Shown here: in pieces, positions 13,245 to 33,484 of the stretch | Layout of the letters: each line of letters starts with the position of its first letter | How positions within the stretch are numbered: position 1 is the first letter of the stretch | Source of the DNA: Candidatus Dadabacteria bacterium | Lineage (GTDB): Bacteria; J088 | Assembly: GCA_003695505.1 (NCBI GenBank) | Contig: RFIY01000119.1 | Span: 1 to 53,087 of the forward strand | Length of the DNA: 53,087 nt | Reading direction: 5' to 3' | Notes under the pieces: model-generated | Databases searched by the model: none | Seen by the model: only the letters and a program-made list of their open reading frames with translations | What the model was told of the DNA's origin: nothing | Program-made: the position numbers and the translations under genes

Positions 13245-13253
13245 GGTCGTCCG

Positions 13254-16464: not shown

Positions 16465-17688
16465 TCAGGGAACGACGGGTTCCAGGGTCTTTTCATATTC
16501 GAAACACGCTGGTCCAGCCTCTGGCAGTGGTATGGGTTGCCCCGCTTCAGGCCAGGGACTCGACGCCGTCACCGGCTCACAACCGACAATCGCCCGATCG
16601 ATCAGCTCCTCGACCGGTATGCGCGAATTGAACGGATCCTCTGCAAGTTCGACGATGTCGCCAACCGTCAGCTCGCTGGGATATCCGACGCCCACAAAGA
16701 TACACATTTCATCGTCGGCGCTCGGACCGTCGGTCACCGTTCGATCTTCGCGATTACGGTAGTGACATGCCCAGTGAACGCCATCTCCGGCCCGCAATGT
16801 CCAGTCACCTGGTTCATAGAAGAGGATCGGTGGCGCATCCCAGTCAGGATTCACGAAAAACGGCGTCTCGCTTACCTCGCTGGTCGCCCGATCGTATTTG
16901 TTCATCGTAAAGCAGGCGCCTCGCGCATGTGAATGGCTCGAGATCGCGACCATTTCGATGTCGCGTTCGACCGCGCACGTCCACGACTCGATGCGCGCAG
17001 ATTGCCCAGGGATCTCGATCGGATCGCCAATCCCGTAGAAACCGGTCAGCACATGCTCTACTTCTGTTTGCGGTACCCGGTAAAAATTGACCGCGGCATT
17101 GACCAGGACATCTTTGTCGCCCGTATTGATGTAGTGGTGTTCCATGATCAGCGTCAGCGGCGCCACGGCCGGCACCGCAATACCATGCGGCAACCGGGCG
17201 ACCTGGTGCGTAATCTGGCTCGGATACACCGGATACGCCCCCTGCTCCATGATGTCGCCAAGCGCGGCGCAGTCCGTCTGCCCGAGTGGATGCCCGAGAT
17301 ACCTCGCACCGACATCCGTGCCGAAGTACGCATCAAGGACAGAAAACACGCCAACGTGAACGTTCATGTGATGGGTCCAGTCCGAGGTCCGACTTTCAAA
17401 ACCCCCAATCCAGACCAGTTTTTCGTCGCCCTGCGGTTCGAATCGAACGATATCGCACACCGTTGTTTCGCTGCCGGCCGGCACGACGTGCGGCGCCGAC
17501 GTGATCTGGTAGCCAAATTCGGGTTTCGGCAACGACACCCGCAAGTCTTCCGCGCCAGGTGGAACCGATGGATCGCGCGCTGTGTCATCGCGGCACCCCG
17601 CACCGGCACAAACGACCAGCAGAACAACCGCGACCGGAACCAGGTCTGCCCACACCGTCCGCCGGCTGTATTGATTAGCGCGTTTCAT
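16465..17688 (-). CDS. exported protein with a copper type II ascorbate-dependent monooxygenase (PHM/DBH)-like two-domain fold
   Basis: Start is Met112 of the 518-aa ORF, with signal/anchor MKRANQYSRRTVWADLVPVAVVLLVVCAGAGC. The ligand-like pattern is HH (106/107), H (184/185), HSH (252/254) and DEMC (Met328). Its spacing closely parallels PHM CuH (H107, H108, H172) and CuM (H242, H244, M314). Confidence 0.6.
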   Translation of the reverse strand: MKRANQYSRRTVWADLVPVAVVLLVVCAGAGCRDDTARDPSVPPGAEDLRVSLPKPEFGYQITSAPHVVPAGSETTVCDIVRFEPQGDEKLVWIGGFESRTSDWTHHMNVHVGVFSVLDAYFGTDVGARYLGHPLGQTDCAALGDIMEQGAYPVYPSQITHQVARLPHGIAVPAVAPLTLIMEHHYINTGDKDVLVNAAVNFYRVPQTEVEHVLTGFYGIGDPIEIPGQSARIESWTCAVERDIEMVAISSHSHARGACFTMNKYDRATSEVSETPFFVNPDWDAPPILFYEPGDWTLRAGDGVHWACHYRNREDRTVTDGPSADDEMCIFVGVGYPSELTVGDIVELAEDPFNSRIPVEELIDRAIVGCEPVTASSPWPEAGQPIPLPEAGPACFEYEKTLEPVVP

Positions 17689-17727
17689 CCCTAGACTCAA
17701 CCACAACGCACCAGCTGAGTCAAGTAC

Positions 17728-17745
17728 AACGAATGGCCGTTCGTT
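17728..17745. promoter_or_regulatory. inverted repeat AACGAA-N6-TTCGTT in the divergent region between the PHM-like gene and the KH-domain gene
   Basis: AACGAATGGCCGTTCGTT. The same AACGAA/TTCGTT arms recur at 33485-33498, and a half-site recurs at 32738-32747. Confidence 0.35.
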
Positions 17746-17775
17746 TAAACGCCGATTTGATTTTGGCCCGCGGAC

Positions 17776-17804
17776 TTGACATCGCCCCATGGTCGGACTA
17801 TGAT
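17776..17804 (+). promoter_or_regulatory. sigma-70-type promoter for the KH-domain gene
   Basis: TTGACA (17776-17781), a 17-nt spacer and TATGAT (17799-17804), about 65 nt upstream of the GTG start at 17869. Confidence 0.55.
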
Positions 17805-17868
17805 TGCACCTGACAGATGTCCTGGCCGGGGGCTGTGGCCCGGGACTTGTGCAGAGGAGGTGCGCACG

Positions 17869-18099
17869 GTGAAAGAGCTTGTGGAACTGATCGCGCGAAC
17901 GCTGGTTGACCACCCGGATCTGGTCGAGGTCAATGAAATCGACGGGGAAACCTCGAGCATCATCGAATTGCGCGTCGGCAAAGAGGACATTGGCAAGATC
18001 ATCGGACGACAGGGTGCACATGCCCGGGCCATCCGCACGCTCCTGGCTGCCGCCGGCGGCAAATACCGCAAACGATTTACCCTTGAGATCATCGACTGA
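17869..18099 (+). CDS. KH-domain RNA-binding protein (UPF0109, YlqC/KhpA family)
   Basis: [63 protein letters not shown] matches the family end to end, including the GxxG loop. The GTG start has GGAGG 8 nt upstream. Confidence 0.8.
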
Positions 18100-18187: not shown

Positions 18188-18778
18188 GTGAGCCGACGAC
18201 TATATTGCCCCAGTTGCGGCGTCGACGTCGAGACATTCGTCATGGTTCAGGGGGGCCAGGAGGTGCCGCACTGCAGCATCTGTGGTCTCGTGCTGGACGA
18301 CGACGAAGCGCCATCTGAAACTGGCACACCAGGACGTGCGGCTCTGGCATACGTCCTGATTGCGGAAGACAGCCCGCTGATTTGCAATGCCGTTGCCGAT
18401 ATGCTCGAATCGCAGCACATTGCAATGGAAGTCGGCCGGGCCGCGAATGGCGTGGAATTCGTGTCACAGGCCACGGCACGGTTTCGCCAGCAGGGCAAGC
18501 TCAGCCTGGCGATTCTCGACGTCGAAATGCCCATCATGAATGGTGTTCAGGCCGCCCGCAGCCTGCGTGACCTTGAACGCCAGCTCCACGTTCCCCGCAA
18601 GACACCCGTCCTGTTTTTTACCAGCCGAAAGATTGACGAACGATTCAAACAGATTCTCCAGCAACTGCAACCCTCGTCCTTCGTCAACAAGGGAACGAGT
18701 ACCGATCCCGAGCATCTTGCCCAACGCGTGCGCAAGGTCCTGTCTGTTCTGCTTCCAGGCAAAGTTCCGGCAGCCTGA
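18188..18778 (+). CDS. single-domain response regulator with an N-terminal CxxC...CxxC zinc ribbon
   Basis: CPSCG-N17-CSICG is followed by a receiver domain: LIAEDS, phospho-acceptor context LAILDVEMP, FFTS and VNKG. No output domain is present. GTG start. Confidence 0.75.
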   Translation: MSRRLYCPSCGVDVETFVMVQGGQEVPHCSICGLVLDDDEAPSETGTPGRAALAYVLIAEDSPLICNAVADMLESQHIAMEVGRAANGVEFVSQATARFRQQGKLSLAILDVEMPIMNGVQAARSLRDLERQLHVPRKTPVLFFTSRKIDERFKQILQQLQPSSFVNKGTSTDPEHLAQRVRKVLSVLLPGKVPAA

Positions 18779-18792
18779 ATCCGTTACAGAAT

Positions 18793-19902
18793 ATGCCGCA
18801 AGGACGCTTTCCCATGCCGACGTGTTTGATCGCGCTGCTTCTGGTGCTGCTCAATGCGTGCGCCGGAGCTCCGCGTATCCCGGACACGCCGGAAGCACCA
18901 CCGGAGCACGGCGCGTTCGAGCGGGTATTGCGCATGGATCCCATCACGCTCAACAGCCCCCCGGACGGCATCCGCAACTGGGGACCTGCCGAATTTTTCG
19001 AGGCCGGCAATGACGCCTATGACGATGCCGACTGGCGGACGGCCGTCGCCTGGTATGACCGGATCATCCACGAGTACCCGGAACACGAACTGGTTCCGAG
19101 TGCACTGTTCAACGGCGGACTCGCACTCGAGCAACTCAACGACCTGGGACGCGCCGAGGCCTATTTCGCCGCGATCGTCGATCGGGCATCTGAGAGCGAA
19201 CTGGTGGCAAGCGCATTGTGGAATCTGGTCGAATTGCGGGAAAAGCGCGCGGCCTGGAGTGATGTTCTGCAGACCATCGCCCAGTTTCACGACCTCGACC
19301 TGAGCGATGACGAACGATTCGAACTTGAGGCGCGCGCCTGGATCGCCCGTGCCATCCTCAAGCCGACAGACGCCAACATCGACCGGCTCGAAGCGATCGC
19401 GGCGACATTTCAGGAACGTCTGCGCCGGGGTGCGCAGCTCGGACGGGATACGCTTGCGCGCCTGTACTGGACCGTCGGCGAAATCTGGCTGGGCCGCGCC
19501 CAGGCCGTAATCCCCGACCCGGACAGTCGGCACCTCGAGGACGACCTCGAAACCAAAGCGGCCGCGCTATTGCGTGCTCAGGACGCCTATTTGCGGACGG
19601 TTCGAGCTCTCGATCCGGTCTGGGCCACCGCCGCCGTATTCCGGATCGGCTTTGCCTATGAAAGTTTCTACGCGGACCTGATCAATTCACCAGCACCCTC
19701 CGCACTGAGTGAAGACGAACGAACCGTCTATCTCGAAGAAGTATACAAAACCCTCGCGCCAGTCAAGAAGAAAGCGGAAATGGCGTACGAACGCATCATT
19801 CGCTTCTCGCGGCAATACAGCATCATGAGCGACTGGGTACATCAGGCCGAGGAACGACTCAGTCGTCTGCAGGCCCTGGAACTGCCATCTCCCGGCGGAT
19901 AA
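18793..19902 (+). CDS. TPR-like lipoprotein (about 365 aa)
   Basis: Signal/lipobox CLIALLLVLLNAC, then helical-repeat sequence (FEAGNDAYDDADWRTAVAWYDRIIHEYPEHELVPSALFNGGLALEQLNDLGRAEAYF). It begins 14 nt after the response regulator. An alternative start at 18814 has AAGGA 8 nt upstream. Confidence 0.6.
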   Translation: MPQGRFPMPTCLIALLLVLLNACAGAPRIPDTPEAPPEHGAFERVLRMDPITLNSPPDGIRNWGPAEFFEAGNDAYDDADWRTAVAWYDRIIHEYPEHELVPSALFNGGLALEQLNDLGRAEAYFAAIVDRASESELVASALWNLVELREKRAAWSDVLQTIAQFHDLDLSDDERFELEARAWIARAILKPTDANIDRLEAIAATFQERLRRGAQLGRDTLARLYWTVGEIWLGRAQAVIPDPDSRHLEDDLETKAAALLRAQDAYLRTVRALDPVWATAAVFRIGFAYESFYADLINSPAPSALSEDERTVYLEEVYKTLAPVKKKAEMAYERIIRFSRQYSIMSDWVHQAEERLSRLQALELPSPGG

Positions 19903-20283
19903 CAGCCCGCCGAACCAGCCCCGGTGCCCCACCCGAGCGCCGGGTCCCGACGATAATTGGCACTCGCTACCCCGCCGCTCGACCGCGATGTTTTCCGCTG
20001 GCGGCGTGGTTACCCAGCCGCAATGACGATCACGACGGTGGGCGTGGCCACCACTTCGGCCCGCCCTGCGAATGGAGATTCCTGCGTTGCCTGTCGTGAC
20101 ATCGCTCAGGTTTGGCGCATTCGGCGGGTTTTTGATAGGATCGGTGTAGCGATATGCATCGCTCAGCGCCGCCTAAAACCTTGTTTTAGCGGCGTCTCCG
20201 GACGGGGAGTGCACCACTGTCCGGTTGACGGCGTTGCATAGGATCAACAACCGAGGTCACACCTGACAACCAGAGGAAACCGC

Positions 20284-21219
20284 ATGCCTGTTCAGATCGG
20301 CACCGTTACGCGGAACGCGCTTTTTCGGGCCCTGATCCCCACTCTTGTCGGCGTTGCCCTGTCGATACCCGTTACGATTCGGGCGCAAAATATCGATCTG
20401 GATCAGTTCGAGGAGATCGACACATCCGGGCAACCTCTTGCGCCGAAACCTCGAGCAAACAAGACAGGAAGCGGCACTTCAGCAGACCCAACGGCCGGCT
20501 GGGAAGAAGTCGCCCCGTCGGCAGCTCGACCCGCACGGCCTCCCGCAAACCGGATGGATACGGTTGACCTGAAGCCGTCCCCAACCGCGGCCGCGGCACC
20601 GAAGGCGACCCCTGTCGTGCCGCCCCAGGAACCGATCGCGACGCCGGCCGCGCGCTCCCGGGCAGGCGTCGATACGCGGGTGCGCACCCCTGCTGCAAAT
20701 ATTTCTCTCGACGCACGCTTTCAGGATCAGATTCGCGAACTGAACCGCGAAATCGCCACGCTCAAGGAGCGTGTCATCGAGGCGAAAAGCCGCCTGCTCT
20801 CCTACTCTCAAAAGGTCGCACAGGGCTTCGCATCGGGGACGCAACTGTACCTCAAGGTGGACAGCGGCCTGGGCAAGGACTTCATCATCGAGCGGCTCGA
20901 GTTCTATCTGGACGGACACCAGATCTATACACGCGAATTCGAACCGGGGGAAACGGTGGACGAGATCCTGGCATACAAGGGCAGCGTACTTCCCGGCCGC
21001 CACCGCATCGATGTTGAAGCGATTCTGCGCGGCGACGACGGTCTGCTCGACTTTGGACACAAGGCCCGGCTTCGGCTGGAATCTGGTGAATATTTCGCAG
21101 CCAACGAAGGCAAAGTCGTTGAGCTCGACCTCGTGCTGTTCGACCGCGGCGGGCTGTTCAAGGCCATCGAAACCCGGCCAGGCCTGAAGTTCGAGATCGT
21201 CGAACGCGACGTTTTCTGA
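20284..21219 (+). CDS. envelope protein with N-terminal hydrophobic segment, Pro/Ala-rich spacer, coiled coil and C-terminal beta-rich domain (TonB-like topology)
   Basis: ALFRALIPTLVGVALSIPVTIRAQ, then P/A-rich PSAARPARPPANR...PKATPVVPPQEPIATPAA, then the coiled coil QIRELNREIATLKERVIEAKSRLL, then a ~130-aa beta-rich C-terminus. GAGGAAA lies 6 nt before the ATG. Confidence 0.55.
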   Translation: MPVQIGTVTRNALFRALIPTLVGVALSIPVTIRAQNIDLDQFEEIDTSGQPLAPKPRANKTGSGTSADPTAGWEEVAPSAARPARPPANRMDTVDLKPSPTAAAAPKATPVVPPQEPIATPAARSRAGVDTRVRTPAANISLDARFQDQIRELNREIATLKERVIEAKSRLLSYSQKVAQGFASGTQLYLKVDSGLGKDFIIERLEFYLDGHQIYTREFEPGETVDEILAYKGSVLPGRHRIDVEAILRGDDGLLDFGHKARLRLESGEYFAANEGKVVELDLVLFDRGGLFKAIETRPGLKFEIVERDVF

Positions 21220-21221
21220 AC

Positions 21222-23696
21222 TTGATCCCGGGACACCGGCCAACTTCCTGTCAGCGCCTGGCGAACCGTGTTCGCCCGGATCGGCGTGTGCGCGCACAGG
21301 GTCAAAGGGTCGCCATAGCGAGCCTGACACTGCTGCTCCTCGCGACGGGTGTGTTCGGCGGTTTCGGATCAGGACCGCAACACGCCGAGGCGGCCATTTC
21401 GGAACAGCGGCTGCAACGCCTGAACTTTTTTTACCGGTTTCAGCTCGGACGAAACTACTTCAACAGCGGAAGCTACCTGGAGGCAGCGGCGCATTTTCAC
21501 AGCCTGCTAGGACAATACGCATCGCTTCCGAGACCCCTGCAGCTTCAGCTCGACTACTACCTTGGCATTTCCTATCACGAAGCCGGATTATCGGATCGCG
21601 CGCGGCCCCATCTGAAGAAGGTGATTGCAACCGCGTTCATTCCGCAATTCGTCGTCGATGCGGCTGTGGCACAAATGGCAATCGATGCCGCGCGCGGCCA
21701 TGCGGACGAGGTGCAGAAGACATATGACCGGATCGCGGCGCGCAATTTTCCGCCAGACCTGCGCGTCCAGCTCGACTACGGTGCAATCCAGGCCAGATAC
21801 CGGCTCAAGGATTACCGCGGCGTGCGCGATCTGGCGCTACGACTGCCCCCGGGCACGCCAGAATACCCCCGGGGCATATTGCTGTCCGCGCTGTCGATGA
21901 TGGCGACGAAGCAGTACTCGGCGGCAGAGGAAGACCTCATGCGGCTGCTCAACGCTCCTGCCGAACTTGAGTCTGCAGGCATCGACAACCAGATACCGCG
22001 GCTGCAACTGATGCTGGCACAGGTTCGGTTTGACCGCGGAGATTACCGCCGCTGCCTTCAGACCCTCGATCAGATTCAGGCGCCGGAACTTGCTGCGGAT
22101 GTGCTGTATACGCGCGGCTGGGCGCAACTGATGCAACAGCGTTACGACACCGGGCTTGAGACGTTCGAGCGCCTCGTGCGAGACCATCCCGAGGACGAGC
22201 GCAGCGTAGAGGCGACGTTGCTGGGCGGATACACGTTGCTGAACCTTGCACGCTTCCCCGAGGCGTACGCCTACTTCGCCACGCTCGAAACCGAATACAG
22301 AAAGGCCGCCCGGGAATTGTCGCGTTTTCGCGGCGGGTTCAACTCAATCCGCTCGCTTGATCAGTTGCTACAGAGCAATGCCCGACTTGCAAAGGCGCCG
22401 ATCCCGCCTCAGATTCGTGACTGGATCTATCAGAGTCGCGATGTCCGCCTGGCCACCGGAGCACGGGATGAGGTCGCCGCGCTGGGCCGACTGATCGGGG
22501 ATCTGCTTCGTGACCTGAAGCGCATGCGTGTCGTCAGTGCCGGCTTCGGCTCATCGTTCGAAAACCCGGCGACCCTCGAACGGCTGTTGCGCAACGAAAG
22601 CGCGCTGCGGCTGACCGAAATTCGCTCGCGGATTCTGGAATTGATGATCAAGCCGGTACGAGAAGGGCTGCTGGCCTCGCAGACTGGCGAATACAACCTG
22701 ATCAATCAGGCACAAAGCACACGCAAGGAGGCCATCAAGGCGATTCGCACGGTGGCCAATCCCGTCAAGGAACGCGCAACGGCAATCCAGCGATCGCTGC
22801 GCAAAATCCAGCACTACCTGTATCTTGTCGCCGACAAGGAATTGTCAGGAACGCCCGATCCTGCCAGCCGGGATATCAGCGCAACAGTCGAATTGTCCCG
22901 GCCGGCGCTCGACATCCTCGACCAGCTTATGACGGATGAAGAGCGCATCGCCTTCGTGTTGCTCAAGGTCATGGAAGAAGAAGAGCGCCTCTGGTCGGTC
23001 ATCGCCGAAACGATTTCCATTGAACGCGGCGCAGCGGAACGCATTCTTCGCAAGCTTGGCCTGTGGGACTCCCAGGCCTACATCGACCGTCTGGAACTGC
23101 TTTACCGCTCGACCAGTGGCATCGAATCCATCCTCAACGACAATGGCGAGCTGCTGCTGGCAATTCAAACGGGGATCCTCGACGGCGTCATGCGCTATAC
23201 CGACACGATGAATGAAGATCTCGCGGACTTGCGGCAACAGCAGGGTGCCCTCTTTGCCGCCGCAGAGCAGGTACGCCTGCAGCGCGTTGATGTGGCCTGG
23301 GACGGCGAAGTACAGCGCCTGCGTGAAGCCGAAGCCCGGATGGCTGGCGGCAAACTCGACCTGGGATGGCGCATCAAGGAAGTCGAACACGAACTGATGA
23401 ACGACGTCCTGCGCGAGGAGCAGGATCGGCTGCGTGAACTGAATGCCTACTACGACAAGGTTCGCGATCAGGCAGAGGCCGCCGCGCGCGCGATCGATGT
23501 ACTGGATGAACGAATCAGATCTCAAATTGCCGGCTCGGTCCAGGGCGACCGAACGGTTGACCTGTCGAAGTCGCTCGAAATGATCTCGCGCGAACTCGAA
23601 CAGATGGAACGATTTGTCAACGAACTCAGTCGCGGATCGAAATCGATCCTCGAACGCGACAAAGAGTTGCAGTGGGTACCGGAGTACCAGCGATGA
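21222..23696 (+). CDS. large exported TPR and coiled-coil protein (about 800-824 aa)
   Basis: Signal-like RVAIASLTLLLLATGVFGGFGSGPQHAEA. The N-terminal half is TPR-like (GRNYFNSGSYLEAAAHFHSLL, YYLGISYHEAGL...). The C-terminal half is heptad-rich and charged. A TTG start lies 2 nt after the upstream stop, and GTG 21288 is an alternative. Confidence 0.6.
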   Translation: MIPGHRPTSCQRLANRVRPDRRVRAQGQRVAIASLTLLLLATGVFGGFGSGPQHAEAAISEQRLQRLNFFYRFQLGRNYFNSGSYLEAAAHFHSLLGQYASLPRPLQLQLDYYLGISYHEAGLSDRARPHLKKVIATAFIPQFVVDAAVAQMAIDAARGHADEVQKTYDRIAARNFPPDLRVQLDYGAIQARYRLKDYRGVRDLALRLPPGTPEYPRGILLSALSMMATKQYSAAEEDLMRLLNAPAELESAGIDNQIPRLQLMLAQVRFDRGDYRRCLQTLDQIQAPELAADVLYTRGWAQLMQQRYDTGLETFERLVRDHPEDERSVEATLLGGYTLLNLARFPEAYAYFATLETEYRKAARELSRFRGGFNSIRSLDQLLQSNARLAKAPIPPQIRDWIYQSRDVRLATGARDEVAALGRLIGDLLRDLKRMRVVSAGFGSSFENPATLERLLRNESALRLTEIRSRILELMIKPVREGLLASQTGEYNLINQAQSTRKEAIKAIRTVANPVKERATAIQRSLRKIQHYLYLVADKELSGTPDPASRDISATVELSRPALDILDQLMTDEERIAFVLLKVMEEEERLWSVIAETISIERGAAERILRKLGLWDSQAYIDRLELLYRSTSGIESILNDNGELLLAIQTGILDGVMRYTDTMNEDLADLRQQQGALFAAAEQVRLQRVDVAWDGEVQRLREAEARMAGGKLDLGWRIKEVEHELMNDVLREEQDRLRELNAYYDKVRDQAEAAARAIDVLDERIRSQIAGSVQGDRTVDLSKSLEMISRELEQMERFVNELSRGSKSILERDKELQWVPEYQR

Positions 23697-26600
23697 TCCG
23701 CCCCGTCAGCATACGTCAGGCCGTTTGCGGCGGCGCCCTCGCCCTTGGGCTCAGCCTGTTACCCGGCATGGCGTTCCCGCAGACATCGGCCGCGGTAACC
23801 GACGAAACGCTCGGGTTCCAGTTGACCGAACGGGTTCGTCTGGCCACCGTCCAGTCGCGGATCCAGGCACAGCGCACACTGATGCAGTGGGTACGGGATC
23901 AGGCAGTCAGGATCGCAAATACCAAGCAGGAACTCGAACGCAAGCAACTCCGCAAGGCGTTCGACGAACTGGTCAAGACGATGCGCGGCAAGGGCAGTGA
24001 GCGGCGTCGCAAGCTGATCGACGAGATGCAGACGTTCGTACAACGCTACGCGGACACGCAGGCGTCGGGCGACCTGCTGCTGCGACTGGCCGAGCTTTAT
24101 TACGAGGAAGCCAACTTTCAGTACATCCTCGCGATGGATGAGTACGAACGGCAATATATCGCCTTCGAGAAGGGGGAGGCCGACAACCCGCCGGAACAGC
24201 CAGAACCCGACTATGGTCCCGCGCTCGAGCTGTACCGCGAATTCACGGAAGCCTACAAAAATCACCGGTATTACCGTGACGGGCTGTATCTGTATGCCTA
24301 TCTGCTCGAAGAATCCGGTTTCGAAGATCAGGCGGTCGAGATTTATGAGCGGCTGCTCGAAACCGACCCCGATGGTCCACTCGCCCCCGAAGTCTCGTTC
24401 CGGGTCGGCCAGTACTATTTTCTGACCGGAGACCTGGATCTGGCGGCAGAACGCTACCGCCATACGCTCAAATTGCGTGATCAGACGTTCTACGACAAGG
24501 CGCTGTACAAACTGGCGTGGACGTACTACCGAATGGACGACCTCGACCGCGCCCTGCTTGGCTTCGTCGAATTGATCGATTACGGCGAAAAGGTGCCGGT
24601 CGGCGCGGAAATGCGCAGCGAAAGTCTCCAGTACATGGCAATCATTTTCTCGGATCGGGGCGGCCTCAAGGATCTCGAAGCGTTCTTCGCGCAGATTGGG
24701 CCGCGTTCATACAAACTGGAAGTCATTGAGCGGCTGGCAGATCTCTATTTTGAGACCGCGGACTATCGCAATGCACTGACCGTGTATCGCGACCTGCTCG
24801 ATCTGCAACCCTATGCCGCGACTGCGCCGGTTCTTGTGCGCAAGATTGAAGATTCCTGGACGAAGCTCGAGAACGAGCGCCAGGTCGTCGAATCCTGGCG
24901 CGAATTCGCAGAGCGCTTCGGTAACGGCACGACGTGGCAAACACGTTGGAAGGAAGCGGACCCACGCCTGGCCTGGGATGTACAGAAAGAAGCTGAAAAG
25001 AAGGGCTTCGACTACGCGGCCTGGTGGCATGGCAAAGGCCAGGCGACGTCGGATCCCGCCAAACGTAAACAGTATTACCTGCGTGCTCTGAAGGCGTATG
25101 AAGCCTTCGAGAAACAGTTCGACGACAGTGTTCGTCTGGCCGAGGCGGTATTCAATCAGGCCGAAATCCATTACGACCTGGGCAACTGGAACAAGGCGGG
25201 TGAATTGTATGCCCGCGTCCCGGAGATTGCCGTCGATCCGACCAACGAACTGTTCTCGGAGTCGGCCTGGAACATGATCCTTGCGCGGCGCAAGGCGCTG
25301 GAAGTCTGGGAGCGCACACCCAAAGCGCAGGCGATGCTGAAAGCCATCGCCGCCGAGCGGGCAAAGCTCGAAGCCACAGCGGAAAAGGCGCAGAAGGAAG
25401 GCTCACTCGCGCGCGCCACCCGCTCGGTCACCGGCCCTGCCGCAACGACTGCCGCCACGCCGACAACCGCAGTCGCCCCACAGGCGCCGGTTGAGGCACC
25501 GACCCGAAAGCGCGTCGGCGCGGACGGCAAGACGGTCAAGAAAAAACGCACCCTTCCGAAGGCCGCGATGAACCTCATTCGTGCGAGTCTGTACTATGTG
25601 CGCCTGTACCCACTGGGCGAACGCTCGCCGGCCGTCTACTACAACACCGGCGACATCCTGATGACCTATGGCCTGTACGGTCAGGCGCGCAAACAATACA
25701 TTTCGTTCGTGGAACGGTTCCCGGACAACGCGTTCGTCCTCGATGCGATCAAACAGGTCGTCCGCACGTTTTTGCTCGAACAGAAGTTTGGCGATCTCGT
25801 CGAATGGGGCTACAGCATCTACGAGTCACCGCTCGCCAACAACCCCGAGATCCGGGACTATTTCACGACGATCCTGTCCGGCGCGATGTTCAAGGACGCA
25901 CAACAACTGGAAAAAGACGAAAAGCTGCGCGAAGCGGCGGACGCCTATCTGACGCTCGTCGATCGCTTCCCGGAATCAGAGTTTGTCGACGAAGCCCTGA
26001 TCAACGCTGCCGCCGCATTGCAGCGCCAGGGAGACTGGGAGCGCTCGACCCAGGTCTTTCTGCGCTTCTACGAACAGTTCCCGGATCACCCATTCGCATC
26101 CGAAGCGCTGTTCCAGACGGCCTGGAACGCCGAGCGTGTCCTCGATTTCAATGCCGCCGTTTCGCGCTACACCGAGCTGCTGGACCGTTTCCCGAAACAT
26201 CAGAAAACGAAAGACGCCCTGTTCAACTCGGCGAATATTCTGGCCAAACTCGGACAATCGCGTCGCGCGGCCGAGCTGTTCCTGCTCTACATCGAGCGGT
26301 TCCCGAATGAGCCGGATGAGGCCGACAACATCTTTTTCGCGGCACGGGCCTATTACGACGATGGCGACCTCGAAAAGGCGGAACAACTTTTCAATCGCTA
26401 CATCAAACACAAGAAGCGTACAGAACGCGAGGTCGAAGCACTTTGGTACCTGTCGCAGATTGCGCTGGAACGTAACGACGCGAAGGGCTATGACAAACTG
26501 CTGGACCGAATCCTCGAAGCCTACAAGCGGTATACCGCGGAAGGAAAAATCGTCGATCCGCGATTCGCGGCCGAAGCCGCATTCCGCAAGGCGGAAAAAG

Positions 26601-27292
26601 TCGATCGCGCCTATCGCAATATCAAACTGCGATTGCCCATGGATCGCATGGCGAAGCTGCTCGAACAGAAGGCTGCGTCCCTCAAGAAGGCGGTGGAAAC
26701 CTGGACGGGCGTCGTGCAATACAAGGATCCGTACTGGTCAAGCGCCGCACTGCACATGATTGGCGAGGCGTACCAGCATTTTGCGGACACCCTGTTCGAA
26801 GCACCGGTGCCGCCCGATCTGGACGAAGAAGAAGCCGAATTTTACAAAATGGAACTCGAAGACCAGGCCTTCCCGATCGAGGAAAAAGCGATGCAGGGCT
26901 GGCAGAAGAACCTCGAACTGGCCGTGCGCCTTGGCATCGACAATGAATGGGTCGAAAAGAGCCGCAACAAGCTGCTCGAACTGTATCCAGATGTCGCGCG
27001 CGTCAAAGGCAAGGAACGGCAATTGCTGGCCGACAACGAATTTTTCTATCGTTTCCCGGCCAGCTCCGAAGGCGGCGACAAGCTGAAATTCGATGGCCCG
27101 CGCGTCGTTTATCTGCAAACGCCATACCGGATCGAGAATCTCGAGCAGCGCTACGCAATCACGCTCGGCTGGACGGACCGGCAGAAGCGCGTGCTGTTCA
27201 ACGTCAGCGTGCCTGCACCAGCCGTTCTGGAAGACGGGCAGATCGTTGAACTCGACGGCATCCGCGACCTCTGGAAGAAGCACTTCCAATGA
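23693..27292 (+). CDS. giant periplasmic TPR-repeat protein (1199 aa), similar in size and architecture to GltD/NfsD (AgmU)
   Basis: ATGA overlap with the upstream stop. Signal peptide MIRPVSIRQAVCGGALALGLSLLPGMAFPQ. Numerous YbgF/BamD-style TPR units run along the whole length (e.g. DKALYKLAWTYYRMDDLDRALLGFVELIDY, EALFQTAWNAERVLDFNAAVSRYTELLDRFP). A low-complexity A/T/P linker lies mid-protein. Confidence 0.7.
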   Translation: MIRPVSIRQAVCGGALALGLSLLPGMAFPQTSAAVTDETLGFQLTERVRLATVQSRIQAQRTLMQWVRDQAVRIANTKQELERKQLRKAFDELVKTMRGKGSERRRKLIDEMQTFVQRYADTQASGDLLLRLAELYYEEANFQYILAMDEYERQYIAFEKGEADNPPEQPEPDYGPALELYREFTEAYKNHRYYRDGLYLYAYLLEESGFEDQAVEIYERLLETDPDGPLAPEVSFRVGQYYFLTGDLDLAAERYRHTLKLRDQTFYDKALYKLAWTYYRMDDLDRALLGFVELIDYGEKVPVGAEMRSESLQYMAIIFSDRGGLKDLEAFFAQIGPRSYKLEVIERLADLYFETADYRNALTVYRDLLDLQPYAATAPVLVRKIEDSWTKLENERQVVESWREFAERFGNGTTWQTRWKEADPRLAWDVQKEAEKKGFDYAAWWHGKGQATSDPAKRKQYYLRALKAYEAFEKQFDDSVRLAEAVFNQAEIHYDLGNWNKAGELYARVPEIAVDPTNELFSESAWNMILARRKALEVWERTPKAQAMLKAIAAERAKLEATAEKAQKEGSLARATRSVTGPAATTAATPTTAVAPQAPVEAPTRKRVGADGKTVKKKRTLPKAAMNLIRASLYYVRLYPLGERSPAVYYNTGDILMTYGLYGQARKQYISFVERFPDNAFVLDAIKQVVRTFLLEQKFGDLVEWGYSIYESPLANNPEIRDYFTTILSGAMFKDAQQLEKDEKLREAADAYLTLVDRFPESEFVDEALINAAAALQRQGDWERSTQVFLRFYEQFPDHPFASEALFQTAWNAERVLDFNAAVSRYTELLDRFPKHQKTKDALFNSANILAKLGQSRRAAELFLLYIERFPNEPDEADNIFFAARAYYDDGDLEKAEQLFNRYIKHKKRTEREVEALWYLSQIALERNDAKGYDKLLDRILEAYKRYTAEGKIVDPRFAAEAAFRKAEKVDRAYRNIKLRLPMDRMAKLLEQKAASLKKAVETWTGVVQYKDPYWSSAALHMIGEAYQHFADTLFEAPVPPDLDEEEAEFYKMELEDQAFPIEEKAMQGWQKNLELAVRLGIDNEWVEKSRNKLLELYPDVARVKGKERQLLADNEFFYRFPASSEGGDKLKFDGPRVVYLQTPYRIENLEQRYAITLGWTDRQKRVLFNVSVPAPAVLEDGQIVELDGIRDLWKKHFQ

Positions 27293-28767
27293 TCCGCTTC
27301 CGCTCGCCATATCGCTTCATCCCCGCCTTCCTGGCCGGACTGCTTGCTGTCGGCTGTGCGTCGACGACGCCATACACGCAGAAACTCGAAACGTCCACCG
27401 CAACCGACGCCGGCACGTCGAGTACGGACACGGCCGCCGAGCGGGCATTGCGCGAACGCATCGCGCGTGACCCAGGTGATTTCAATGCCTGGTACGATCT
27501 GGGCGTTCTCTATGAGCGCCGCGGCGCCATCGACCAGGCCGAGCAGGCCTGGCGCAAGGTACAACTGCTCGAACCGCGCCACATCCCCGCCGCGGTCAAC
27601 CTCGCGGCACTCTACAAGGCCCGCGGCCAGATCCGCGAAGCAATTGTGACGCTCAACGACCTGTTCGACACCGGCATGGACGATCCGCAGGCGCGCACCG
27701 ACCTGGCGATCCTTTACCGCCTCAGCGGCAACGCCGACCGAAGCCTGTACGAGTCGAGCGAGGTACTCAAACGATTCGGGCTGGTCTATGGCGCGATGCT
27801 CAATGCCGGCCTGGTCTATCTCGACACAGGCCGAACCGAAATGGCGTTGACGCTGTTTCTCGAGCTGAAGAACCAGTACCCCGACGACGCAGGGCTGCAC
27901 TTCAGCATCGGCAAAGCCTACCAGGCGCTCGGCAACCCGATCGCGGCCGAAAAAGAATACCAGCAGGCTATCAGTCTCGATACCAACGCATACGAAGCGT
28001 ATAACAACATCGGCGTCCTGCGCCTGCTCAAGAAAGAATACGCCGCGGCATTGACCCAGTTTGAACGGGCCGTTTCGGCCAACGTCAACTTTGCGACCGG
28101 CTGGCTCAACCGCGGTATCGCACTGCGCGGTCTGGAGCGCTATCGCGAGGCAGAGCAATCCTGGAAGCGGGCGCTGAGCATCCGCCCTGACTTTCCCGAG
28201 GCCGAATATAATCTGGCCCTGCTCTACGACGACTACTGGAACCGCCCGGACAACGCCATTACCGCCTGGCGTGCGTACCTGAAGCGATACGGAAAAACAC
28301 TGCCGGAAGACGAAGTCAAACGCATCGAGGATCGGATCGCGGCGCTGCTCGAGCGCAAGGAAAAACTCCGCGCCGAGGCCGAGCAGGAACCAGAGCCTGA
28401 GCCGGAACCGGAGCCGGCGCCTGAACCTGCGACGACGCCCGCTGCTCCGGCGGCAATGACCACCCCGGATGCGGCCACCGCAACGACCCCACCTGCGCCC
28501 GTCTCCACGCCCGCCGAGGCATCCGCGCCCGAGGAACAACCCGAACCTGCTGCAACGACCAGCTCGGAACCCGACTACGCCGAGATTGCCGAGGCCTTCA
28601 ACCAGGCGCGTCAGGATGCGGGACTCCCGCCCGTTGAACCAACGCGTCTGATCGAACAACTCGCCAACAAGGCCGCCGAATTGCAACAGAAGAGCGGCAA
28701 AGCCTGGACGTTCGAAGTCCAGACCGATGGGGACAAGCCCAAACTGGTGCCAAAGGCGCTTGAATAG
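27289..28767 (+). CDS. TPR lipoprotein (492 aa) with an (EP)n/T/A/P-rich linker, similar in size and architecture to GltE/NfsE (AglT)
   Basis: ATGA overlap with the upstream gene. Signal peptide FIPAFLAGLLAVGC-AST. Classical TPRs (NAWYDLGVLYERRGAIDQAEQAWRKVQLLEPRH, HFSIGKAYQALGNPIAAEKEYQQAISLD, AYNNIGVL...). Linker EQEPEPEPEPEPAPEPATTPAAPAA.... Confidence 0.7.
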   Translation: MIRFRSPYRFIPAFLAGLLAVGCASTTPYTQKLETSTATDAGTSSTDTAAERALRERIARDPGDFNAWYDLGVLYERRGAIDQAEQAWRKVQLLEPRHIPAAVNLAALYKARGQIREAIVTLNDLFDTGMDDPQARTDLAILYRLSGNADRSLYESSEVLKRFGLVYGAMLNAGLVYLDTGRTEMALTLFLELKNQYPDDAGLHFSIGKAYQALGNPIAAEKEYQQAISLDTNAYEAYNNIGVLRLLKKEYAAALTQFERAVSANVNFATGWLNRGIALRGLERYREAEQSWKRALSIRPDFPEAEYNLALLYDDYWNRPDNAITAWRAYLKRYGKTLPEDEVKRIEDRIAALLERKEKLRAEAEQEPEPEPEPEPAPEPATTPAAPAAMTTPDAATATTPPAPVSTPAEASAPEEQPEPAATTSSEPDYAEIAEAFNQARQDAGLPPVEPTRLIEQLANKAAELQQKSGKAWTFEVQTDGDKPKLVPKALE

Positions 28768-28853
28768 CCCCAAGAATCAGAACGCCGTTCCGATTGCACC
28801 ACTTTCTTGCTTATGCATCGAAAAGACGTTAAAATACCTTGACTCGTTTCGAC

Positions 28854-28867
28854 CTGGCATATGCCAG
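28854..28867. promoter_or_regulatory. perfect 14-bp palindrome CTGGCATATGCCAG in the AT-richer gap upstream of the terminal lipoprotein gene, with TTGACT at 28839-28844
   Basis: Read directly from the sequence. It sits about 30 nt upstream of the GTG start at 28898 and just downstream of a -35-like TTGACT, so it could be an operator overlapping an internal promoter. Confidence 0.4.
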
Positions 28868-28897
28868 CAACACACAACAACAGAGGAGAAGGAACCC

Positions 28898-29659
28898 GTG
28901 TTTCTCAAACGTTTCGTTATGCTTTCTTCCATCGCCCTTCTGTCCGGCGGCATGGCCTGTGGCCTCGTCGATGATGCGCTGAACAACCTCGCGGCCCAGC
29001 TCGAGGAAGAGGCGGCTTCAGCCGGCATCGATGTCAACGCAACCATTCCTGATCAGCAGCAGGCTGAAGAAATTTTCGGGGCGACCGTCAATGCGATCAT
29101 GGGCAGCGCAATGGAAGTGGCAATGCAGGCCGCGCAAGAATCGGCCGGCGGCGCCGCTCCAATGCAGGACGCTCAGACGATTACGGTCAACAAGACAATT
29201 GATGTCGAAGGCGGCGGTACGCTGACCGTTGACGGTACCGTGACGCAGGAGCAGACCGAAACCAGCATCACCATGACCCAGGACATTACCGTGACCTGGT
29301 CGGGCGTGAATGTTCCGACAGAAAATGGTGCGGTCGAAACCTCCGGAAAATTGGTGCAAGTCACGACGCTCGAAATCGACCCGCAAGCACAAAGCCCCGA
29401 GCCCAGCTCGGTCGAAAGCGATCTGGTTGGTCAGATCACCACGCCGGCCGGAGCGTTCGCATTCGACGTCCATATTTCTCTCGCCAGCAACACCCTGACC
29501 ATCGAAGGGACGCTGAATGGCAAGGACTACAGCCAGACGATCGACCTGTCTCAGCTCGAAGATGACATGGGGGGTGCACCGGACGGTACGACTGATACCG
29601 TAACCGGCCCCACCGATGGCGTGACCGACTCGTCCTTGCCTGGTACGACAACGCCGTGA
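28898..29659 (+). CDS. probable lipoprotein, Thr/Gln/Glu-rich (253 aa)
   Basis: The GTG start has GAGGAG 9 nt upstream. Signal peptide VFLKRFVMLSSIALLSGGMAC. The extended ORF start at 28727 would overlap the preceding gene. Confidence 0.55.
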   Translation: MFLKRFVMLSSIALLSGGMACGLVDDALNNLAAQLEEEAASAGIDVNATIPDQQQAEEIFGATVNAIMGSAMEVAMQAAQESAGGAAPMQDAQTITVNKTIDVEGGGTLTVDGTVTQEQTETSITMTQDITVTWSGVNVPTENGAVETSGKLVQVTTLEIDPQAQSPEPSSVESDLVGQITTPAGAFAFDVHISLASNTLTIEGTLNGKDYSQTIDLSQLEDDMGGAPDGTTDTVTGPTDGVTDSSLPGTTTP

Positions 29660-29689
29660 TACAGATCTGACTGCAAACAGCAGAGAAAA

Positions 29690-29717
29690 GCCGCCCGCTT
29701 GCGGGCGGCTTTTTTTT
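29690..29717. terminator. rho-independent terminator closing the 18.2-29.7 kb plus-strand cluster
   Basis: GCCGCCCGC-TT-GCGGGCGGC forms a 9-bp GC stem followed by T8 (29710-29717). It lies between convergent genes. AAAA precedes the stem, so weak bidirectional activity is possible. Confidence 0.8.
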
Positions 29718-30865: not shown

Positions 30866-31871
30866 GCCACGACGCGACCAGCCGTGACAATGCGTCGAGA
30901 TCAGGCGCGTCCAGAAGCATCAGCGATATGTCGTCGGCCCACGCGAGCCTTTCGTGCAGCTTGCGGGCCACCTGCTTCGGCGGCCCGAGAACGGCGAACG
31001 CGTCGACAACGTCATCGAATACGGCGTCGGCCAGCGCCTGCCAGCGCTGCTGGCGAACGAGCTGGGCACACGCGTCGCAGAGATCCTCCAGGCCTGATGC
31101 CGCGAAAATCGGCGCATAGGCGGGCGTCGATGCATAAAAGCCAATCTGGGCGCGTATCCGCTGCCGACCCTGTTCGAGAACCTCCTCGCGATCGGACACG
31201 CAAACGATCGCCTGCGCGATCAGCTCCAGCGGCGCAGCGCTGTCATCGCGCCGCGCACGTCCTTCCGCGAGTGCGGACCGCGTTACCGTGTCGAAATACG
31301 GCCCGGTCGCCAGCGGAAAGACCACAAACCCGTCGGCGCACTCCGCCGCGAGCGCGGTCATCGCGGGTCCGACCGCCGCGAGCCAGACCGGTGGCGGCCC
31401 AGCGTCACATCTCGCTGGTCGAAACATTGGCTGCATCCGCGTATGGCGGACGAAACGTCCTTCGACGTGCAGCGGGACATCGTGATACCAGTTGTCGAAA
31501 ATGGCGCGGATCGCCTGGATATACTCGCGCATGCGCGAGACAGGCGGTGCCCAGGGCATCCCGTATCGCTCTTCGACATTCTCCCGAATCTGCGCACCTA
31601 GTCCGAGCGCGAATCGGCCGCCCGTAAGCAGTTGCAGGTCATTCGCCGCATACGCCAGCGTCATCGGATTCCGCGCGAACGCGACGGCAATCTGCGTGGA
31701 CAGCCGCGCGTCTCCGAGACCCTGAGCGACTGCGGCGGCCTGTACGAAGACATCTCCCGCCCCCTCGAACAGGAACATTCCGTCACAACCCGTCGCCCGA
31801 ACGTCCCGGGCCAACGCCGCGAGCGCCCGTGGATCAGCCGCGGCCAGCGGCAGATGGAGTCGTGGTGGCAT
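30837..31871 (-). CDS. luciferase-like monooxygenase (LLM) class flavin/F420-dependent oxidoreductase
   Basis: Length and sequence are typical of the LLM TIM-barrel family (RFALGLGAQIRENVEERYGMPWAPPVSRMREYIQAIRAIF...). Confidence 0.8.
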   Translation of the reverse strand: MPPRLHLPLAAADPRALAALARDVRATGCDGMFLFEGAGDVFVQAAAVAQGLGDARLSTQIAVAFARNPMTLAYAANDLQLLTGGRFALGLGAQIRENVEERYGMPWAPPVSRMREYIQAIRAIFDNWYHDVPLHVEGRFVRHTRMQPMFRPARCDAGPPPVWLAAVGPAMTALAAECADGFVVFPLATGPYFDTVTRSALAEGRARRDDSAAPLELIAQAIVCVSDREEVLEQGRQRIRAQIGFYASTPAYAPIFAASGLEDLCDACAQLVRQQRWQALADAVFDDVVDAFAVLGPPKQVARKLHERLAWADDISLMLLDAPDLDALSRLVASWRDTTELSHA

Positions 31872-31882
31872 CCGCCGTCGTC

Positions 31883-32683
31883 TTATTCCCCGGTGAACCG
31901 GGGTTCACGCTTCTCCATGAAGGCCGTCGGTCCTTCGCGGGCATCCTTCGAACGAAAGACCGGTTCACCAATCTCCAGCGACTTCGCGATCGCGTCCTCG
32001 GCAGGTACGCCATCGGTCTCGACCAGGGCGCGCTTGACGGCCTGGACCGCCACCGGACCGCACTTCGCGATGCGCTCGGCGACCTCCATCGCCTTGTCCA
32101 GTGCCTTGCCATCGTCGACCACGTAATTGATCAGGCCGTAGTGGAGCGCTTCGTCGGCCGTCAGACGGCGTCCACTGAGCAGCATCTCGGCTGCGATCGC
32201 ATACGGGAGTTGCCGGCGCAGGCGCACCGTGCTGCCACCAAGCGGAAACAGGCCAAGCTGTACTTCGGTGACGCCAAACACGGCGCTCCGGCCCGCGACG
32301 CGAATATCGGTTCCCTGCAGGATTTCGGTACCTCCTGCCAGCGCGAAGCCCTCGACCGCGGCAATCAGCGGTTTCTTTGTCAGGTACTTGAGCAGCAGCG
32401 CTTTCCAGTGCAACTCGGGATCTTCCTGCATCCGCTGCATCCAGACATCGCCTGCGTCCCATTTGCCGCTCGACATCGCGCCAAGGTCGCTTCCGGCGCA
32501 GAAAACACCGCCCTTGCCCGTCAGCACGATGGCGCGTACATCCCGGTCGTTGTCGGCCTCTTCCCAGGCGTCGGCCATGCGCACCAGCATTTCGATGCTC
32601 AGCGCGTTGCGCTTGTCTGGCCGGTTGAACGTACACAGGGCGACGTGGCCCCGTTTCTCGTACAGAAAATGTGCTTCGGACAT
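31883..32683 (-). CDS. enoyl-CoA hydratase/isomerase (crotonase) family protein
   Basis: RPDKRNALS, VLTGKGGVFCAGSDL, PLIAAVEGFALAGGTE, GLFPLGGSTVRL. Confidence 0.9.
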   Translation of the reverse strand: MSEAHFLYEKRGHVALCTFNRPDKRNALSIEMLVRMADAWEEADNDRDVRAIVLTGKGGVFCAGSDLGAMSSGKWDAGDVWMQRMQEDPELHWKALLLKYLTKKPLIAAVEGFALAGGTEILQGTDIRVAGRSAVFGVTEVQLGLFPLGGSTVRLRRQLPYAIAAEMLLSGRRLTADEALHYGLINYVVDDGKALDKAMEVAERIAKCGPVAVQAVKRALVETDGVPAEDAIAKSLEIGEPVFRSKDAREGPTAFMEKREPRFTGE

Positions 32684-32737
32684 CGATGGTCCTCCCGGAC
32701 TGCTATCGTATTGTATGTTGCCTTGCTACAGGCTATA

Positions 32738-32747
32738 ACGAACGTTA
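32738..32747. promoter_or_regulatory. AACGAACGTT half-palindrome in the divergent region between the crotonase operon and the PAP2 gene
   Basis: It shares the 10-nt core with the full palindrome at 33485-33498 and lies 24 nt upstream of the PAP2 ATG. Confidence 0.35.
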
Positions 32748-32770
32748 GATTCGCGCAAGCACGTCACCGG

Positions 32771-33439
32771 ATGCTGTCCACCTGCGGAAGTACACCATTG
32801 ACTTCGACGACGACTGAAACTCTGGAACCACGCATCCTCCTGCTCCGCTGGGCGACGGCCTTTCTGATCGCGGCCGCTCAGACCTGGGTGTATATTCTGC
32901 TCAACGTCTGGAACATCTCGCGTTTCGACAGTGGCGCGTGGTCCGCGATCAGCCTGCACACGCCGCTGGACGATCTGATCCCGTTCGTTCCCGAGGCCAT
33001 CTGGACGTACCAGTTGTACTATCCGCTCGTGCTGCTACCCGTGTTTCTGATCCACAATCAACGCGTCCTGCGCGAAACCGCGGCAGCGTACATTCTGATG
33101 CTTGGCATTGGCGCCCTGTCCTGGATCCTGATCCCGGTGCGCATGGTCTATCCAGAGATCGGCTGCCATTCCGTCAGTTGCGAATGGCTCGCCCACCTCT
33201 ACACGATCGACCAGGGCGTCAACGTCTTTCCGAGCGAACACACGTCTCTCAGCCTCTATGTCGCCATCCGCTACGTCGAGTCGCGGCATCCGTTCGCCAT
33301 TCCGGTCGCGATCGCCGCAGCGGCGGTGATTGCGTCCACGGTCCTGATCCGCCAGCACTACCTGCTGGATCTGCCGGCGGGCGCGCTCGTCGCCTGGATC
33401 TCGTGGCGCGTTTCGCGCCACTATTTTCGCGGCAAATAG
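32771..33439 (+). CDS. PAP2_C/sphingomyelin-synthase-like integral membrane phosphotransferase
   Basis: Start is Met315 of the 31829..33439 ORF; the upstream part is antisense to the crotonase gene. About six hydrophobic segments. FPSEHTS (SGHT-like) and IRQHYLLDLPAG (HYxxD) motifs. Confidence 0.65.
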   Translation: MLSTCGSTPLTSTTTETLEPRILLLRWATAFLIAAAQTWVYILLNVWNISRFDSGAWSAISLHTPLDDLIPFVPEAIWTYQLYYPLVLLPVFLIHNQRVLRETAAAYILMLGIGALSWILIPVRMVYPEIGCHSVSCEWLAHLYTIDQGVNVFPSEHTSLSLYVAIRYVESRHPFAIPVAIAAAAVIASTVLIRQHYLLDLPAGALVAWISWRVSRHYFRGK

Positions 33440-33484
33440 GTACCATTCGCCACCCAGGCACACGCTCAGACGGCAACAAAAGGC

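Follow-up and report, generated by a model that had tools for sequence, protein, structure and literature searches.

We analyzed a complete 53,087-bp contig (the window) of a metagenome-assembled genome (MAG) that carries the NCBI label Candidatus Dadabacteria bacterium and locus tags of the form D6761_. A preliminary description of this DNA had reported seven consecutive plus-strand genes, three of which it likened to GltC, GltD, and GltE of Myxococcus xanthus. Open reading frames (ORFs) for all seven were found between positions 18188 and 29659, and the trio of 824, 1199, and 492 aa very likely belongs by homology to the GltC/GltD/GltE family, and the cluster with it to the Glt/Nfs superfamily. 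The genes are as follows.

18188..18778, plus strand: cytoplasmic single-domain response regulator with an N-terminal four-Cys zinc ribbon (PF00072, 52 bits)

18793..19902, plus strand: 369-aa tetratricopeptide repeat (TPR) lipoprotein ("mini-GltD"), related as a short paralogue to the last third of GltD-like proteins

20284..21219, plus strand: 311-aa exported protein (D6761_04815) with a Sec signal peptide, a disordered Pro-rich linker, a helix (residues 144-179), and an eight-strand beta-sandwich (residues 186-309)

21222..23696, plus strand: GltC-like TPR/coiled-coil periplasmic protein, 824 aa (hhalign, TPR matches)

23693..27292, plus strand: GltD-like all-alpha TPR "pillar" protein with a signal peptide, 1199 aa (D6761_04825; full-length matches, AlphaFold2 [AF2] model)

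27289..28767, plus strand: GltE-like TPR lipoprotein, 492 aa, with a low-complexity linker, a short C-terminal domain, and a conserved lipobox

28898..29659, plus strand: 253-aa lipoprotein, the seventh gene, with a GTG start preceded by GGAGAAGGA, the same direction of transcription, and no family match

As had been proposed, each of the six proteins after the response regulator starts with a Sec signal peptide or a lipobox. Homologues keep these export signals, which are present on all five conserved scaffold proteins. The proposed lack of catalytic motifs also held: Pfam and NCBIfam searches returned only TPR-type matches for the exported proteins, and no enzyme domain was found by either in any of the seven. 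The tight coupling of the middle genes was borne out at two of three junctions. ATGA overlaps at 23693 and 27289 were read directly in the sequence, but the 2-nt gap ahead of the 824-aa gene presupposes that translation begins at TTG 21222. An alternative GTG start at 21288 would give a more typical signal peptide, widen the gap to 68 nt, and yield a product of 802 aa.

One genome per species was scanned for relatives of the GltD-like protein, which gave 505, and the loci of the best 80 of these were annotated using the window proteins and the proteins of one complete locus (L001) as queries. These best 80 included two fragments from the lineage of the window (L004 and L007) and one reduced cluster (L005); otherwise their architecture was of the G4 type, named after a set of M. 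xanthus paralogues. Gene order was constant in the annotated loci: a 250- to 350-aa protein, a GltC-like protein of ~800 aa, a GltD-like protein of ~1100-1240 aa, a GltE-like TPR protein, a ~90-aa protein, sometimes ExbB-ExbD-ExbD, and a ~450-aa protein. Matching loci share the order and sizes of MXAN_1923-1919 (809/1111/490/91/447 aa) and of Hoch_6494-6498. Both sets are given as GltC/D/E/F/G homologues in Table S3 of Luciano et al. 2011 (PMC3169522); that paper names the M. xanthus set G4 and reports that an insertion in MXAN_1922 leaves motility unaffected. Judged by sequence, the closest relatives of the window cluster thus appear to be the function-unknown G4 paralogue cluster of M. xanthus, MXAN_1919-1923, and Hoch_6494-6498 of Haliangium. 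The neighboring genes in Myxococcus eversor had gliding_GltC, gliding_GltE, and gliding_GltG plus an AgmX/PglI C-terminal domain as their best NCBIfam matches, all below the equivalog cutoffs, which marks them as paralogues.

The 1199-aa protein aligned over residues ~70-1100 with GltD-like genes in the ~75 loci outside the window lineage at 25-30% identity (mostly 26-28%); these loci are mostly labelled Myxococcota or Deltaproteobacteria. Its database relatives comprised proteins with 51-59% identity in four metagenome contigs and many with 21-30% identity from Myxococcota, Bradymonadales, and "Deltaproteobacteria." In the AF2 model (mean predicted local distance difference test score [pLDDT], 79), an N-terminal helix (37-118) is followed by TPR-like helix pairs from 175 to ~1000 and by C-terminal helices (983-1100), with disordered stretches at 1-47, 570-615, and 1102-1199. 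This predicted architecture agrees closely with the one reported for M. xanthus GltD in Cambillau and Mignot 2025 (PMC11761067), which comprises a long N-terminal helix, a central TPR region, a C-terminal helical domain, and a disordered tail. No NCBIfam GltD model was matched, even by the GltD-like paralogue of the Myxococcus G4 set.

For the 492-aa protein, the best NCBIfam match was gliding_GltE (NF033758) at 92.6 bits, below the equivalog cutoff of 225 bits; the G4-type paralogue of M. eversor scored 101.9 bits on the same model. The protein also matched the 383-aa GltE-like protein of L001 (phmmer, E 2.9e-23). The 824-aa protein was aligned by hhalign with the G4-type GltC-like family (99.6%, E 1.4e-23, 644 columns), a family whose M. 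eversor member matches gliding_GltC (NF033756; cutoff, 450 bits) at 67 bits. Since the NCBIfam scores lie below the equivalog cutoffs, the window proteins are to be regarded as paralogues, not orthologues, of the motility proteins. The block of 311-, 824-, 1199-, and 492-aa proteins matches the L001 block of 287, 852, 1239, and 383 aa gene for gene. The likeness of the run to GltC/GltD/GltE, which the preliminary description had drawn from gene order and size, is thereby supported as homology through the G4-type relatives, collinearity, and hhalign.

The gene directly upstream of this trio encodes a further conserved partner. Its 311-aa product was aligned with a Myxococcota family of 287-aa proteins (hhalign, 99.6%, E 8.7e-25), and in 54 of 55 related G4-type loci, the gene just before the GltC-like one is a 287-like homologue. 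An exhaustive profile search recovered 1,475 cluster representatives of this 311/287 family at 50% identity, 940 of them at E<=1e-10 and most of them 210-390 aa long. No model in the copies of Pfam-A and NCBIfam that were searched matched the family, and it was not among the entries in the available part of Table S3 of Luciano et al. (PMC3169522). The family also includes long proteins with four or five tandem copies of the domain, P0125, P0155, and P0159 (862, 1636, and 588 aa, respectively).

The 311-aa protein had been described as having TonB topology. That resemblance is one of layout and does not reflect homology: the protein did not match PF03544 or TIGR01352. The AF2 model, built with 24 homologues, consists of a signal-peptide helix, a disordered Pro-rich stretch, a 36-residue helix, and a beta-sandwich with pLDDT >90. 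Its homologues carry cleavable Sec signal peptides, while TonB would have an uncleaved N-terminal anchor. Foldseek comparison of the model with the PDB returned only generic beta-sandwiches with template modeling (TM) scores of <0.25, so no function can be assigned from the fold. We also considered the protein as a TonB or GltG analogue; the AF2 fold and the Foldseek result rule against this.

The G4-type loci differ from the window cluster in what follows the GltE-like gene. Counted only in loci with enough flanking sequence for the gene in question, a GltG-like gene was present in 61/61 G4-type loci, a GltF-like gene in 59/61, a 287-like gene in 54/55, and a motor gene in cis (ExbB) in 11/57. 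No MotA/ExbB, ExbD, GltG-like, or GltF-like sequence was found in any frame of the 53-kb window, either by single-sequence phmmer or with profile hidden Markov models (HMMs) at a threshold of E<=10. The profiles were built from 9-66 related sequences each (66 for GltG-like and 55 for GltF-like proteins), and the GltF-like profile was run on window ORFs of at least 30 aa. Pfam detected no MotA/ExbB or ExbD domain in 30 further flanking ORFs of the window, where the genes include def-fmt-rsmB, mreBCD-pbp2-rodA, mltG, and genes for a PilB-like ATPase, TetR regulators, and an aldehyde dehydrogenase. Three methods therefore agree with the earlier observation that the window contains no TolQ/TolR-like motor genes. 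A GltG-like gene was likewise absent downstream of the cluster in all four loci with downstream sequence (the window, L002, L003, and L084). The GltF-like, GltG-like (TonB-C), and ExbB/ExbD genes have thus been lost in cis.

These absences bear on the suggestion that the cluster is a Glt/Nfs-type core complex. In Luciano et al. (PMC3169522), the "core complex" consists of GltC, D, E, and G plus AglR, Q, and S, encoded in one operon in Gamma- and Betaproteobacteria, Geobacter, and Fibrobacter. Homologues of GltC, GltD, and GltE are present in the window. GltG, an inner-membrane protein whose AgmX/PglI C-terminal domain resembles TonB, is absent from it, as are AglR (MotA/ExbB type) and AglQ and AglS (ExbD/TolR type), and the cluster therefore does not qualify as this seven-gene complex. 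Nor is a "trans-envelope" nature of the cluster supported, as none of its genes encodes an integral inner-membrane protein.

The remaining genes of the cluster are conserved within the lineage. The order response regulator, 369-like, 311-like, GltC-like, GltD-like, and GltE-like was found on five other contigs at ~45-60% identity. The six-gene set is complete in L002, L003, and L084, and the contigs L085 and L086 end within the GltC-like and the GltD-like gene, respectively. In these relatives, the long ORFs and the start/stop overlaps are intact, and the alignments contain many invariant columns. The seventh gene does not belong to the conserved set, contrary to its inclusion in the original cluster: L002, L003, and L084 have no counterpart. 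As a candidate conserved member it was rejected, with the seventh position held by a PMI-like cupin in L002 and L003 and by an unrelated 280-aa protein in L084. The 253-aa lipoprotein is lineage specific.

At the other end of the cluster, the response-regulator gene of L002, L003, L084, L085, and L086 directly precedes the 369-like gene, and the two either overlap or are only a few nt apart. The zinc ribbon of the regulator (CPSCG...HCSICG; C7, C10, C29, and C32) precedes the receiver domain. It is kept in four of five homologues, the ORF call of the fifth being truncated, and the acidic pocket and Asp are conserved. The ribbon and the ZnR domain of GltJ have a CxxC-18/19-CxxC spacing in common, which is an analogy only, with no detectable sequence similarity. 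Kinship with GltJ ZnR (PDB 7ZOK) was rejected after PDB sequence searches with the ribbon gave only rubredoxins and ribosomal zinc ribbons at E>0.01. The 369-aa protein matched residues 780-1097 of the 1199-aa protein (BLASTP, E 1e-17) and the GltD-like alignment (hhalign, 99.7%, E 1.7e-25, 303 columns), so that its counterpart is the region of residues ~800-1100 in GltD-like proteins. Its lipobox Cys23 is invariant in five homologues. Relative to G4-type clusters, the translationally coupled pair of response regulator and mini-GltD is a gain.

In a neighbour-joining tree of GltD-like proteins, computed without support values, the window lineage was sister to L005/L006, followed by L055/L034/L044. 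Since L006, L055, and L044 carry ExbB and GltG in cis, the clade of the window is nested beside lineages with a cis motor and GltG, and its motor-less state appears to be derived. L005 and L006, whose GltD-like proteins are sisters, come from one MAG (JALSQH01). L005 is reduced, with GltD- and GltE-like genes and no downstream GltF, GltG, or motor gene; L006 is complete. In L006, positions 10497-14554 hold the complete Glt-like cluster (GltD/E/F-like, ExbB, and GltG-like), followed directly by genes for a beta-barrel porin (BBP2_2), a Wza-like protein (Poly_export/SLBB), and a Wzc-like protein (Wzz/GNVR/AAA_31). This adjacency of a Glt-like machine and polysaccharide export recalls Nfs/Exo.

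We compared the cluster with each of the named systems that it resembles. The G4 cluster is the closest match, with GltC-like (~800 aa), GltD-like (~1100-1200 aa), and GltE-like (~400-500 aa) proteins encoded in the same order by overlapping or abutting ORFs, and with a gene for a helix-plus-beta-sandwich protein of ~250-350 aa directly upstream of the GltC-like gene. In contrast with G4, the window lacks the small GltF-like protein and the GltG-like TonB-C protein, and it also has no motor in cis. It has the zinc-ribbon response regulator and the mini-GltD lipoprotein in addition, and identity to G4-type proteins is only ~25-30%. The Agl-Glt gliding machinery (GltA-K, AglRQS, and CglB) shares the GltC, GltD, and GltE scaffold homologues and the predicted architecture of the GltD-like protein. 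The barrels GltA/B/H, GltK/CglB, GltF/G/J/I, and AglRQS are all missing from the window, and nothing points to motility. The Agl-Nfs spore-coat machinery (NfsA-H with AglRQS in trans) is alike in its C-D-E order and in having no motor in the cluster. The cis-encoded NfsG adaptor and NfsA/B barrels of that system are absent from the window, however, and no polysaccharide export genes are adjacent to the cluster. A link of the Glt family to surface glycans is seen in L006, where the Wza/Wzc-like genes beside the Glt-like cluster constitute a likeness to Nfs. With the core of Luciano et al., the window shares the GltC/D/E homologues and an organism that is no known glider and is not labelled Myxococcota, but four of the seven defining genes are missing here.

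In the published M. xanthus model, GltD is a periplasmic pillar, with GltE on its C-terminal domain and the GltC helix on its N-terminal helix (PMC11761067). Coupling of GltD to AglR is provided by GltG, which wraps around GltD, and outer-membrane barrels serve as the docking site for GltC. With this model as a guide, we consider the cluster to be probably a derived branch of the Glt/Nfs envelope-machinery superfamily that acts as an outer-membrane-tethered periplasmic scaffold. The GltD-like protein would form a periplasmic TPR pillar. The GltE-like lipoprotein would sit on its C-terminal helical domain and the GltC-like protein on its long N-terminal helix, as in M. xanthus GltCDE. The two lipoproteins would anchor the assembly to the outer membrane, and the helix-plus-beta-sandwich protein would be an extra stoichiometric partner on the GltC side. 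If it works like Glt (adhesin/slime) and Nfs (spore-coat glycan), such a scaffold may arrange or retain a polymer, at the surface or in the periplasm, or a complex of the outer membrane. Coupling to the proton motive force, if any, would come from a TolQR/ExbBD-type motor and an adaptor encoded elsewhere. Because it has no DNA-binding output domain, the response regulator would act as a phosphorylation-controlled cytoplasmic switch through protein contacts. Since the cluster contains no inner-membrane adaptor, we describe it as a scaffold and not as a self-contained trans-envelope motor machine.

Several points weigh against this interpretation. The connection with Glt was made by way of G4-type paralogues, NCBIfam models, and published tables, not by direct comparison with a bona fide M. 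xanthus GltD or NfsD sequence. The 824-aa protein did not match NCBIfam GltC (NF033756) at E<0.01. Similarity scores are inflated among TPR proteins, but synteny and the regions outside the TPRs speak against an artefact. The tree on which the derived state of the cluster depends is a neighbour-joining tree that carries no support values. Given that GltG wraps GltD and that every G4-type locus counted has a GltG-like gene, a GltD-like protein without GltG would be unprecedented, and the partner may be encoded elsewhere. Finally, our statements on function are reached by analogy, and the G4 cluster itself has no known phenotype.

The question of a partner encoded elsewhere leads to the alternative held by the preliminary description, namely, that the cluster encodes the periplasmic and outer-membrane half of a complete Glt/Nfs-type trans-envelope machine, with a GltG-like adaptor and an AglRQS-type motor supplied in trans. 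We regard this as possible but doubtful. Nfs sets the precedent, having no motor of its own and using AglRQS through NfsG (Wartel et al. 2013, PMC3858216). Myxococcaceae G4-type clusters likewise have no cis motor, in keeping with the small number of G4-type loci that carry ExbB in cis. The occurrence in one MAG of the reduced L005 and the full L006 (with ExbB and GltG), sisters in the tree, is compatible with supply in trans. However, every characterized or surveyed set has its own GltG in cis, both in the G4-type loci counted above and in the M. xanthus sets G1, G3, G4, and G5. The window, L002, L003, and L084 all lack GltG downstream of the cluster. Database searches, which were not exhaustive, gave no GltG-like protein and no second GltD-like protein of this MAG. 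For GltG, none was present among 39 matches to a 16-protein profile in a database of 5.8 billion proteins of which 8,000 word-sharing candidates were scored, a result that is not evidence of absence. For GltD, the search recovered no second paralogue from this MAG, which may be incomplete.

Because the surveyed sets keep GltG in cis and this lineage is without it in all four loci, we lean slightly toward the scaffold itself as the functional unit. A stricter form of the scaffold proposal, which we put forward only tentatively, is that the scaffold is independent of any motor. The genome as a whole would then encode no GltG, GltF, or dedicated TolQR-type motor, the mini-GltD lipoprotein would replace the inner-membrane anchor, and the response regulator would be the sole cytoplasmic control. 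If this were true, the GltCDE module would have a function of its own, separable from force transduction.

It is very improbable that the proteins are generic TPR or CpoB-like periplasmic proteins (Tol-Pal accessory or Bat-like) whose likeness to Glt is driven by repeats and not by common ancestry. CpoB/YbgF has TPR_6-type repeats as well, and its model TIGR02795 was matched by the 369-, 824-, and 1199-aa proteins. The 1199-aa protein reached 133 bits on this model (cutoff, 90.1 bits), homologues are named "TolA-binding protein" by JGI, and the GltE match of the 492-aa protein (92.6 bits) is barely above its matches to MamA (91.2 bits) and PilW (87.8 bits). However, five repeat stretches add up to the YbgF score, and the GltD-like protein of the Myxococcus G4 set scores higher still, at 157 bits. 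Homology spans ~1000 residues and includes non-TPR helices, and the four-gene collinearity extends to the 311/287 family, which is not of TPR type, and to the GltC-like family, which is mostly coiled coil. The tol-pal operon encodes CpoB/YbgF as a ~260-aa protein that has a coiled coil at its N terminus and a single TPR domain; the window proteins differ from it in size, architecture, and neighborhood. The CpoB/Tol-Pal assignment was rejected because the TIGR02795 cutoff was exceeded only by that summing of repeats and because no tol-pal genes (tolQRAB-pal) are present in the window. The Bat assignment was rejected because the window has no vWA-domain (BatA/BatB) gene and BatC gave only a weak TPR match, at 31-35 bits against a cutoff of 175. 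Equally improbable is a decaying, non-functional remnant of a G4-type machine after loss of its motor module, for while the otherwise universal GltF and GltG genes have indeed been lost, long ORFs, export signals, start/stop overlaps, and many invariant columns are intact in the relatives, three of which keep six genes at 45-60% identity, and a gene pair has been gained.

What Glt-like paralogue or "core" clusters do, apart from gliding and sporulation, has been a question since 2011, and the literature searched contained nothing that deals with the G4 genes other than the 2011 and 2013 papers. Under the scaffold reading, GltC/D/E and a previously unremarked helix-plus-beta-sandwich partner would make up a unit able to persist without a GltG adaptor and motor in cis. 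Anchoring and control of the complex may fall to the two additions specific to this lineage, the mini-GltD lipoprotein and the zinc-ribbon response regulator. The organism is uncultured, and the direct pay-off is therefore comparative rather than experimental; the 311/287 family, an almost universal neighbor of G4-type GltC-like genes, could be studied in M. xanthus.

The DNA around and between the genes was also characterized. Rfam and tRNA scans detected no RNA genes in the window, and the strong terminator reported at the end of the cluster was confirmed. The further features are as follows.

17776..17804, plus strand: sigma-70-like promoter match upstream of the KH gene, TTGACA-17 nt-TATGAT (11/12; a consensus match only)

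~17860..18099 (start approximate), plus strand: KhpA-type KH-domain gene, the upstream neighbor (PF13083, 70.7 bits)

19903..20283, plus strand: intergenic gap of 381 nt separating the 369-aa gene from the 311-aa gene; it contains no convincing ORF and matches nothing in Rfam

29690..29717, plus strand: intrinsic terminator, GCCGCCCGC-TTGC-GGGCGGC followed by T8 (9-bp GC stem, 4-nt loop)

The KH gene, which the preliminary description did not mention, lies upstream of the response-regulator gene on the same strand. In L002 and L003, a homologue occupies the equivalent place; this is not the case in L084 and L086. The equivalent of the 381-nt gap is 91-139 nt in relatives, and the gap may contain an internal promoter or regulatory element. 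A GltF gene at this site was considered and rejected, the sole ORF there (94 aa, TTG start) having neither a signal peptide nor a profile match. A second, smaller gap of 130 nt precedes the seventh gene.

Diverging from the KH gene, a minus-strand gene at 16465-18021 encodes a 518-aa exported protein with a weak match (25.8 bits) to PF03712, the C-terminal domain of copper type II ascorbate-dependent monooxygenases. This domain is unusual in bacteria. The region 2788-10434 encodes a sigma-54 response-regulator activator, a PilB/GspE-type ATPase with MshEN, an LD-carboxypeptidase, a 543-aa TPR protein, and FecR-domain and conserved 290-aa proteins. The FecR-domain and 290-aa proteins and def-fmt-rsmB are also found near the cluster in L002 and L003, in a rearranged order. 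Downstream of the cluster on the same strand (31829-34727), two genes encode, in this order, a 536-aa membrane protein that carries a PAP2 phosphatase domain at its C terminus and a Sulfotransfer_3 family protein; these may be a lipid or glycan modification pair.

The MAG label, Candidatus Dadabacteria, denotes a class in Thermodesulfobacteriota, and GltD-like relatives outside the lineage itself are mostly labelled Myxococcota, Bradymonadales, or "Deltaproteobacteria"; checking the label with marker genes may be warranted. A rod-shape cluster, mreB-mreC-(mreD)-pbp2-rodA, lies ~11 kb downstream on the minus strand (40708-46167). Since the mre cluster is complete, the organism is presumably rod shaped with a classical elongasome. 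In Myxococcus, Agl-Glt has MreB as its cytoskeletal partner; the proximity of the mre cluster to the Glt-like cluster is probably coincidental.

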